A stretch of 64,000 bases of DNA from Escherichia coli (GTDB taxonomy: Bacteria; Pseudomonadota; Gammaproteobacteria; Enterobacterales; Enterobacteriaceae). Below, piece by piece: positions 60,001 through 64,000 of this stretch (positions within the stretch are counted from its first letter, which is position 1; every line of letters begins with the position of its first letter). Position numbers: made by a program. The stretch lies in NCBI RefSeq assembly GCF_003334255.1, contig NZ_QOWU01000025.1; one strand, written 5' to 3'.

Positions 60001-63000
60001 GTATCGGCAGCCTGCAGATTATGCTCGACCGCGGTAAAGAGCTGGACTGGTTTTCATCACAGGAAATTATCATCCTTACCGTGGTGGCGGTGGTGGCTAT
60101 CTGCTTCCTGATTGTCTGGGAGCTGACCGACGATAACCCGATAGTCGATCTGTCGTTGTTTAAGTCGCGCAACTTCACCATCGGCTGCTTGTGTATCAGC
60201 CTCGCGTATATGCTCTACTTCGGCGCTATTGTTCTGCTGCCGCAGTTGTTGCAGGAGGTCTACGGTTACACGGCGACCTGGGCAGGTTTGGCCTCTGCGC
60301 CGGTAGGGATTATTCCGGTGATCCTGTCGCCGATTATCGGCCGCTTCGCGCATAAACTGGATATGCGGCGGCTGGTAACCTTCAGCTTTATTATGTATGC
60401 CGTCTGCTTCTACTGGCGTGCCTATACCTTTGAACCAGGTATGGATTTTGGCGCGTCGGCCTGGCCGCAGTTTATCCAGGGGTTTGCGGTGGCCTGCTTC
60501 TTTATGCCGCTGACCACCATTACGCTGTCTGGTTTGCCACCGGAACGACTGGCGGCGGCATCGAGCCTCTCTAACTTTACGCGAACGCTGGCGGGGTCTA
60601 TCGGCACGTCGATAACCACGACCATGTGGACCAACCGCGAGTCGATGCACCATGCGCAGTTGACTGAGTCGGTAAACCCGTTCAACCCGAATGCCCAGGC
60701 GATGTACAGTCAACTGGAAGGGCTTGGGATGACGCAACAGCAGGCATCAGGCTGGATTGCCCAGCAGATCACCAATCAGGGGCTGATTATTTCCGCCAAT
60801 GAGATCTTCTGGATGTCAGCCGGGATATTCCTCGTCCTGCTGGGGCTGGTGTGGTTTGCTAAACCGCCATTTGGCGCAGGTGGCGGCGGAGGCGGTGCGC
60901 ACTAAGTACAACTAAGCCAGTTCATTTGAACTGGCTTTTTTCAATTAATTGTGAAGATAGTTTACTGACTAGATGTGCAGTTCCTGCAACTTCTCTTTCG
61001 GCAGTGCCAGTTCTTCGTTGCTGTTGATGCGTACGTCACGTTCCAGAATGCTACGCGCAATATCCTGCGCTTCCTGCAACGAGTGCATCTGGTAAGTGCC
61101 ACACTGGTAGACGTTCAGTTCCGGGATCTGATTCTGATCCTGCACTTTCAGCACGTCTTCCATTGCCGCTTTCCAGGCATCAGCAACACGCTGCTCATCT
61201 GGCGTACCAATCAGACTCATATAAAAACCGGTGCGGCAGCCCATTGGCGAGATATCGATAATCTCTACACCATTACCGTTAAGATGGTTACGCATAAAAC
61301 CAGCAAACAGGTGCTCCAGGGTATGGATCCCTCTTTCTGGCATCACTTCTTTGTTCGGCACGCAGAAGCGCAGATCGAACACGGTGATTGCGTCGCCATG
61401 CGGGGTGTTCATTGTTTTCGCCACCCGAACTGCAGGCGCTTCCATCCGGGTATGATCGACTGTGAAGCTATCTAACAACGGCATTTAGCCACCTCCGGTA
61501 ATTTTTTTAAAAATTTTCTGAACTCTTTCTTCCCAGGCGAGTCTGAGTATATGAAAGACGCGCATTTGTTATCATCATCCCTGAATTCAGAGATGAAATT
61601 TTGGCCACTCACGAGTGGCCTTTTTCTTTTCTGTCAGGCGTGTTTTTCCAGCCACACCGCAAACGGTTCGGTATCAGCGGCTTCCATTTCCTGCTGACGG
61701 CGTTCAGACGCCTCGCGCTCGGCTACAAAATCCTCTTCGCGCAGAATTTCCAGCGGCTCTTCACGCAGCAGATTACGGTAGGCTTCTGCAAATGCTTTGC
61801 CTGTTCCGCCAATACCAGTATCAATCATAGACCTTAAGATACGGGCAGAGAAAGTCAGATCGGGATTATCGAAGCAGGCAACCAGTTCATCACACACTTT
61901 CTGATACGCTTCGCCGCCGTTAATACTATCCAGCGTTTGCGCGACGCGTTTCAGATCGCGGAACAGATCTTTACCCACCTGCGGTAACGGGAACTGTGCG
62001 GTTTCGCAGCCGATACCCAGCGTCAGACCCGGTTTGCGACCTTCGAGGATCACCCGGTTCCAGTTAACGCGTGTACAGGCAAGTTCGCTACTGCTCATTT
62101 CCGGTGCATCAGCCAGCGCACACCAGACCATAAACAGGTCGAGGAATCGCACCTGCTGTTCATCTACACCAATCGGCGAGAACGGGTTGATGTCCAGCGA
62201 ACGCACTTCAATATATTCAATGCCGCCACGTAACAGCGCATCAGAAGGCGACTCGCCGCTGCGGGTAACGCGTTTTGGACGAATCGGCGCGTACAGTTCG
62301 TTTTCAATCTGCAACACGTTGCTGTTGATTTGCAGCCTCTTACCGTCTTTCTCAATACCAATCTTCGCGTACTCTTCCGATGGCGTTTTGATTGCCTGTT
62401 TAAGGCCCGCTACGTACTCGTAAAGATCGTTGAAGGTAATACCAAGATTGCTTTGCGATTTATTGGTATAGCCGAGATCGCTCAAACGAAGAGAGGTCGC
62501 ATACGGCAGGTAATACATACCGCACTCGGTTTTCTCAAACGGCAGCGACGTTGGTTTTCCTTGCAGGAAAGAAGAACAAATCGCCGGAGATGCACCAAAC
62601 AGATAAGGAATGACCCAACCGAAACGATAGTAATTGCGGATAACGCGGAAATAGCCCGCAGAAATTTTCTCTTTGGCATCAGCGCCCGAGATATCACCGC
62701 ACTTCGCTTGCCAGAATGCCATTGGCAAAGAGAAATTGTAGTGCACGCCGGAAATGGTTTGCATCAGCGCGCCGTAGCGATTTTTCAGCCCTTCACGATA
62801 CAGCGTTTTAAAGCGTCCGGTGTTAGAAGTGCCGTACTGTGCCAGTTCGATGTCCTGACCTTCTGCGATGTAGCATGGCATACTTAACGGCCACATCCGC
62901 TCATCGCCCATATTGCGCGCCGTATAACGATGCAGATCGCGCATAAAGGTCAGCATATGTTCAATATCACCATCCACTGGTGTAATGAATTCCAGCAATG

Positions 63001-64000
63001 CTTCCGCAAAATCGGTAGTAATCCATTTGTGCGTCAGTGCGGAACCTAATGCTTCAGGATGACCTGTTGTTGCCAGTGTGCCATCAGCATTAACACGCAA
63101 AGTTTCGCGCTCCAGCCCACGCTGTATCCCCTTTAACGCCTGAGGATGTTTTTCCAGCCAGGCCAGCGCCTGTGATACGTCCGGGATCAAATTGACCTCC
63201 CGCCTGTCAAAATCGTTTTAATTAGCATAACTGTAATGGTGACCATATGTGCAGGCCTACAATTAGTGCCACCACATCATGCCCTGAACGGTCGCTGCTG
63301 CAACTGCAACATAGCGTAACGCTTTACCAAGGCACAAAAAAAAGATTACCGGTCCCCACGAGATGCGCATCCATCCCGCTAACAGACACAGTAAATCGCC
63401 AACCACGGGCATCCAGCTTAATAATAGCGTGACTGCACCATAGCGTTTCAGCCAGCCGGTAGCTTTCTCTTGCCAGCGCGATGTTTTACGCAATGGAAAG
63501 AAACGCCCAAGGATAACGTTAGTTAACCCTCCAAGGCTATTACCCATTGTTGCTGTTAAAACTAAAACCCAGGGATGACTGATCCCGGAAAGCAACATTG
63601 CCACCAGCACGACTTCGGAGTTGCCGGGTAATAGTGTAGCGCTGAGAAAACTACTGGCAAACAACGAGAAAAGCGATAACGCTTCACTCACAGCAAGCGA
63701 ACATCCACGGCGTCCATGCCTGCTGCACGGGCCGCCTGAATACCGAAATCGGCATCTTCAAAGACCACACACTGCGTCGGTTGCACGCCCATACGCTGCG
63801 CGCACAACAAAAATGTGTCTGGCGCGGGTTTATGGTGTTTGACGTGATCGGCAGCGACGACGGCGTCAAAATAATGGCGTAATCCCAGGTGCGCCAGCAA
63901 TGCCTCAGCGATGGCGCTTTCACTCCCCGTTCCTACAGCCATTGGGCGACGACCATGCCAACTTTTCACCACATCAACAAGAGGAAGCGGTTCGACGCTA

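Follow-up and report, generated by a model that had tools for sequence, protein, structure and literature searches.

The luxS–micA–gshA locus of Escherichia coli: a small RNA ending just short of the stop codon of a TTG-initiated gshA

We analyzed a 64,000-nucleotide stretch of Escherichia coli DNA (contig NZ_QOWU01000025.1 of the RefSeq assembly GCF_003334255.1), hereafter called the window, with a focus on the small RNA (sRNA) MicA and the two genes beside it, luxS and gshA. The segment is almost certainly the canonical luxS–micA–gshA locus of E. coli, in which MicA (61553..61628, + strand) lies between the divergent luxS and the convergent gshA, and gshA begins with a TTG codon. The position of MicA, its sigma-E promoter and the UUG start of gshA are all already published, and the additions made here to this well-studied locus are minor: a gshA start that is never ATG in the species compared, a tight spacing that is conserved, and a terminator that works in one direction only. 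As an annotation check, the analysis shows the window to be a correctly read segment of the E. coli core genome, and the frame and coordinates of a preliminary description, made from the sequence alone, to be right.

The identity of MicA is established by Rfam. The MicA model RF00078 matched the window at 61553-61624 (+) with 83.9 bits (E = 1.3e-12; the gathering score is 41) over its full length (model positions 1-75 of 75), and a scan of the whole window with Rfam found the match again, in agreement with the MicA call of the preliminary description. The predicted fold leaves the 5′ region unpaired and comprises a stem-loop (61575-61596) and the terminator hairpin (61603-61620); its minimum free energy is -20.5 kcal/mol (z-score -2.98 relative to shuffled sequences). 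MicA is an Hfq-dependent RNA of about 72-76 nt, made from a sigma-E promoter in envelope stress, and, from the literature, its unpaired 5′ end would pair with the mRNAs of ompA (outside the window) and other outer-membrane proteins, leading to their repression. A 48-codon open reading frame (ORF) at 61551-61697 was rejected as a coding candidate; its ATG precedes the MicA +1 by 2 nt, which leaves the ORF partly outside the transcript.

The boundaries of MicA were checked by Rfam, by the primer sequence of Udekwu and Wagner (PMC1851643) and by Term-seq, as well as in the record of the Prokaryotic Genome Annotation Pipeline (PGAP), which is without micA. The primer KU32-pMic, stated to finish at micA -1 (PMC1851643), ends at window position 61552, and the +1 at 61553 thus agrees with the published one. 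At the other side, the main MicA 3′ end as mapped with Term-seq, MG1655 2814877(+) (Adams et al. 2021, PMC7815308, Supplementary file 1), converts to window position 61628, which is 8 nt past the terminator stem and 5 nt short of the gshA stop codon. The conversion (window = MG1655 - 2,753,249) follows from the two context sequences of 61 nt printed there, deduced to consist of 50 nt upstream, the 3′ end itself and 10 nt downstream, and it is forced because the + and - entries must share a single offset. The previously described spacing of 9 nt between MicA and the gshA stop codon is reproduced with the annotated MicA end at 61624, the gap being 61625-61633.

For comparison across species, a collection of species-representative genomes was scanned with the 5′ 21-mer of MicA, GCGCATTTGTTATCATCATCC, yielding at least 120 loci, of which those listed all belong to Enterobacterales; the 21-mer is identical in at least 120 species. 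This identity fits a constrained seed, in a species sample that was itself selected for an intact MicA seed. The loci were oriented on MicA, and gshA and luxS were sought by tblastn (121 loci); the species counts below refer to the listed loci.

Upstream of the mapped MicA +1, the window contains a sigma-E-type promoter of the GGAACTT-N16-TCTGA class. Both elements were read from the sequence: the -35 GAACT at 61520..61524 (+), corresponding to -33..-29 and preceded by an A/T-rich tract at 61500-61517, and the -10 TCTGA at 61542..61546 (+), corresponding to -11..-7 and ending 6 nt upstream of +1, with a spacer of 16 nt between the full GGAACTT-type -35 and the -10. Among 118 listed loci, the AAC core of the -35 is 99-100% conserved, and the GTCTGA block at -12..-7 is 75-100% conserved. 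A consensus sigma-E signature and rpoE dependence have been reported for micA (Udekwu and Wagner, PMC1851643). A sigma-70 match on the - strand at 61575-61546 was also considered and rejected; it is a single consensus match, compared with 2.8 in shuffled sequences, and it misfits the published luxS 5′ ends.

The two flanking genes are equally well defined. The gene luxS (60969..61484, -) encodes S-ribosylhomocysteine lyase, as judged from its ORF, a match to NF002602 with 349 bits and its RefSeq annotation, and its ATG at 61484 lies 68 nt from the MicA +1, which bears out the divergent arrangement described earlier. The gene gshA (61634..63190, -) encodes glutamate–cysteine ligase in an ORF of 518 codons, followed by a TGA stop codon at 61636-61634 that reads tca on the + strand (61634-61636). 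The GshA protein scored 916.5 bits with TIGR01434, the equivalog model of the proteobacterial glutamate–cysteine ligase (cut-off 393.3), with residues 6-517 matching profile positions 1-512 of 512, and it aligned with the solved E. coli enzyme (PDB 1v4g) across residues 1-518 of 518.

The same layout recurs throughout the species examined. Among the 121 listed loci, luxS is divergent upstream of MicA in 117 and gshA is convergent downstream in 114, the rest being mostly losses at sequence ends. The spacing between luxS and micA is 66-92 nt in most listed loci, and the gshA stop codon lies 8-27 nt from the end of the terminator stem in 110 of 112, and 13 nt from it in the window. Outlying spacings of 385 nt and 100 nt were observed for the locus of Enterobacter sp. 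EA-1 and one other locus, and are likely sequence errors or rearrangements; the luxS match of Enterobacter sp. EA-1 is fragmentary. Within E. coli, a 1.9-kb stretch of the locus shows 100% identity with K-12 MG1655 as well as with several further strains, and this stretch is present in 5425 of 5426 complete genomes.

A second transcript of the locus runs antisense to MicA. The luxS promoter P1 is located within the 3′ coding region of gshA (61816..61829, -), and was described to start transcription at a G at -332 from the luxS ATG, from a sigma-S-like -10 element with a C at -13 (Udekwu 2010, PMC2956633). These elements were indeed located at the expected window positions 61830-61816, inside gshA, with the -10 TATGAT at 61829-61824, the C at 61830 and the transcription start site (TSS) G at 61816. 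The P1 transcript crosses the gshA stop codon and the whole of micA in antisense, and its leader is converted to a shorter species in a manner dependent on MicA and RNase III; no gshA–luxS polycistronic message was known (both PMC2956633). The conservation of P1 across species follows the 3-nt coding periodicity and is not separable from the coding constraint, the Ts of the -10 at third codon positions being conserved at only 50-57%. Nothing found contradicts the identifications, although two observations qualify the picture. First, the RefSeq/PGAP record of K-12, in which luxS, gshA and yqaA are annotated at the locus, has no micA feature, which represents an annotation gap rather than an absence. 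Second, the LuxS protein was unchanged on MicA overexpression (Udekwu 2010, PMC2956633), so that the physiological weight of the antisense interaction between MicA and the luxS leader is uncertain.

On the other side of luxS, a 10-bp palindromic hairpin at 60914-60937, between emrB and luxS, was called as a terminator on both strands, with a T-run on the + strand only. A strong - strand Term-seq 3′ end (MG1655 2814159), classed as 'antisense emrB', lies 5 nt past it, and the hairpin is presumably the luxS terminator.

The MicA terminator occupies 61603..61620 (+) and consists of the rho-independent hairpin GGCCACTCACGAGTGGCC followed by TTTTTCTTTT. Its 7-bp stem (arms 61603-61609 and 61614-61620, with 5 G-C pairs) encloses a 4-nt loop and is followed by UUUUUCUUUU, a U-tail of the kind found at Hfq-type 3′ ends. 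The stem ends 13 nt from the gshA stop codon, and this is the only hairpin immediately downstream of that stop. In all 117 listed loci that could be compared, the 8 nt past the stem contain 7 Ts on the MicA strand, and 0-4 Ts on the gshA strand. The terminator is thus, judged from its sequence, canonical in one direction only across the listed Enterobacterales, and it is at this strong intrinsic terminator that MicA ends, 5-9 nt before reaching the stop codon of the convergent gshA. With this tail-to-tail packing, any gshA-strand transcript that passes the stop codon would be antisense to MicA.

The preliminary description had suggested that this antisense arrangement could couple the expression of MicA and gshA. 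The published hint in its favor is an overlap of mapped 3′ ends. A - strand Term-seq end, classed as 'primary gshA, antisense micA' (MG1655 2814861(-), 34,625 reads, PMC7815308, Supplementary file 1), corresponds to window position 61612, in the loop of the terminator, and would overlap MicA, which extends to 61628, by 17 nt. Against this stand the annotated features, which are 9 nt apart, and the documented antisense partner of MicA, which is the luxS leader. In its strongest form, the suggestion would make MicA and gshA a functional cis-antisense pair with 3′ ends overlapping in a shared hairpin, in which the sigma-E-induced MicA transcription or RNA alters the 3′-end formation or stability of the gshA mRNA, and gshA transcription in turn alters the MicA output, through an RNA duplex with RNase cleavage or through the collision of converging polymerases. 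Besides the 17-nt overlap, several observations are consistent with such a pair. The gshA gene has no other hairpin or U-tract for termination, the spacing between the stem and its stop codon is conserved, and a Rho termination region antisense to gshA on the + strand (MG1655 2815245, Rho score 4.87, PMC7815308), corresponding to window position 61996, suggests that + strand transcription either runs about 370 nt past the MicA terminator or begins inside gshA.

Other points speak against such a pair. The end at 61612 may have arisen by processing or as a library artefact of the hairpin, the latter because, in our view, such an artefact would also fall at the exact center of the palindrome, where this end lies. 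RNase III is cited as requiring two helical turns (PMC2956633), more than a duplex of 17 nt provides, and the conserved spacing may simply mirror compact intergenic regions. Furthermore, the luxS P1 transcript, and not the gshA mRNA, may be the source of part or all of the - strand signal. In another growth condition, the main - strand end is MG1655 2814914 with 305,886 reads (PMC7815308, Supplementary files 1 and 3), which corresponds to window position 61665, within the gshA ORF, 29 nt before its stop codon and 181 nt upstream of luxS. This end and the luxS P1 start at 61816 would delimit an RNA of about 152 nt within the 3′ coding region of gshA; the site at 61665 lacks a U-tract terminator, and we found no discussion of this end. 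The literature likewise yielded no published effect of MicA on the gshA mRNA or protein, or of the overlap on MicA levels, and an effect of MicA on gshA itself is at present inferred. We consider a functional cis-antisense pair unlikely, and coupling between MicA and gshA to be a reasonable but unproven extension of the known antisense relationship between MicA and luxS.

A related proposal is that the MicA terminator doubles as a 3′-end module of the gshA mRNA, with the spacing of 8-27 nt and the one-sided U-tract maintained by selection. We regard this as distinctly improbable. If true, these features would allow envelope stress to tune glutathione synthesis through sigma-E, via MicA transcription or RNA, and would set the amount of gshA-strand transcription that enters luxS. 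In combination with the non-ATG start codon, gshA would then be post-transcriptionally controlled at both ends across Enterobacterales.

It is very unlikely, in turn, that the hairpin acts as a bidirectional intrinsic terminator, efficient for MicA and gshA transcripts alike, in an arrangement of sharing without regulation. The stem is a perfect palindrome that folds equally well on the - strand, it lies just past the gshA stop codon, and the gshA-classed 3′ end maps inside it. Nevertheless, the + strand was the sole strand for which the terminator scan reported it, and the - strand tail, AAAAUUUC, contains 3 Us in 8 nt, within the range of 0-4 found in the 117 listed loci, as compared with 7 of 8 on the MicA strand. 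The mapped gshA-strand 3′ end is in the loop rather than past the stem, and the luxS P1 transcript passes through the hairpin in vivo (PMC2956633), a read-through that fits a terminator without a U-tract on the gshA strand. A canonical bidirectional terminator was rejected on account of this missing U-tract. The one-directional terminator of MicA would accordingly leave the gshA-strand transcripts without a terminator of their own.

At its 5′ end, gshA starts with the TTG codon at 63188..63190 (-), as had been described. This is the first possible start after the in-frame stop codon TAA at 63218-63220, 10 codons upstream, and it is preceded by the Shine–Dalgarno sequence GGGAGG (63196..63201, -), 5 nt before the TTG. 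No other in-frame ATG, GTG or TTG is present between the upstream stop codon and codon 31, the next candidates being codons 31, 65, 72 and 79, and UUG is also the start codon in the study of Sakamoto et al. (2015, PMC4405209). That GshA begins elsewhere is hardly conceivable: TTG is rare as a start codon, but there is no alternative over this interval, conserved sequence would be lost with initiation at codon 31 or beyond, since TIGR01434 aligns from residue 6, the strong Shine–Dalgarno site is conserved in the 90 listed species with a gshA 5′ end, and mutating the TTG alters GshA–LacZ synthesis (PMC4405209). A literature search for N-terminal data on the UUG start gave only unrelated papers, and gshA is absent from the supplements of a Salmonella N-terminomics paper.

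The choice of a weak start codon has functional consequences. When UUG was changed to AUG, the synthesis of GshA–LacZ increased 3.0-fold, and its stimulation by polyamines fell from 2.4-fold to 1.1-fold (PMC4405209). With its UUG codon, gshA fits the polyamine-modulon genes of the weak-start-codon class, which have a UUG or GUG start in place of AUG and, as reported for E. coli gshA in that study, lose their polyamine stimulation when the start becomes AUG. The weak UUG behind the strong GGGAGG site holds down GshA synthesis and makes it polyamine-responsive, in line with the published mutagenesis. As a side observation, emrB ends at 60905 and belongs to the emrR/mprA–emrAB operon, which extends upstream of 59358; with this operon on one side and gshA on the other, two polyamine-modulon members would flank luxS and micA within a few kilobases.

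The start codon was also compared across species. In the 90 listed loci that include the gshA 5′ end, the position aligned with residue 1 of the E. coli protein is occupied by TTG (72 loci) or GTG (18 loci) and never by ATG, with the block GCGGGAGGT located upstream of the start in nearly all of them. All 18 GTG starts are from Pantoea, Tatumella, Rosenbergiella or sequences resembling them, and the split between TTG and GTG looks like a single evolutionary event. Because of this apparently single event and the selection of the sample by the MicA seed, the number of independent observations is smaller than 90. The pattern suggests that long-term selection has acted on the weak initiation of GshA. 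In several species, gshA has an extra in-frame ATG 13-14 codons upstream, which lacks the conserved Shine–Dalgarno sequence.

Several other features were noted elsewhere in the window. Scans with Rfam and ARAGORN located the sRNA RyfD at 2928-3066 (-), the pheL (Phe) leader at 6372-6497 (+) and naRNA4, a nucleoid-associated RNA of the repetitive extragenic palindrome (REP) type, at 54878-54955 (+). A tRNA at 32506-32581 (-) was assigned by ARAGORN to Met from its CAT anticodon, and its position fits ileY. The gene ssrA, encoding the transfer-messenger RNA (24367-24729), is directly followed by ypjA (region 24367-25700), the ssrA integration site being free of any prophage, a contiguous layout common to 1174 of 5426 complete E. 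coli genomes. K-12 MG1655 carries the prophage CP4-57 at this site; the window would then not derive from wild-type MG1655, despite the identity of the two in the gshA region.

Compared with known systems, the MicA of the window corresponds to MicA (SraD, RF00078) of E. coli and Salmonella, with which it shares the +1, the luxS and gshA neighbors, the sigma-E promoter and a U-rich intrinsic terminator; we found no difference, apart from the nuance that the Term-seq 3′ end lies 4 nt past the annotated one. The GshA protein likewise has the 518 amino acids and the N-terminus MIPDVSQ of E. coli GshA 1v4g, and differs from it solely at residues 106, 164, 205 and 223, where 1v4g has Ser and the window encodes Cys; the four Ser residues of 1v4g are taken to be engineered changes. 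As in the cis-antisense pair formed by the long 5′ leader of luxS and MicA, the window contains the P1 elements, namely the -10 TATGAT, the C at -13 and the G of the TSS, and it is this long leader, not gshA, that is the documented antisense partner of MicA. Finally, the MicA terminator resembles the bidirectional intrinsic terminators of convergent genes in that one hairpin is placed between two convergent units, 13 nt from one of the stop codons. Unlike those terminators, it lacks a U-tract on the other strand in all species examined, and thus the symmetry that defines them is missing.

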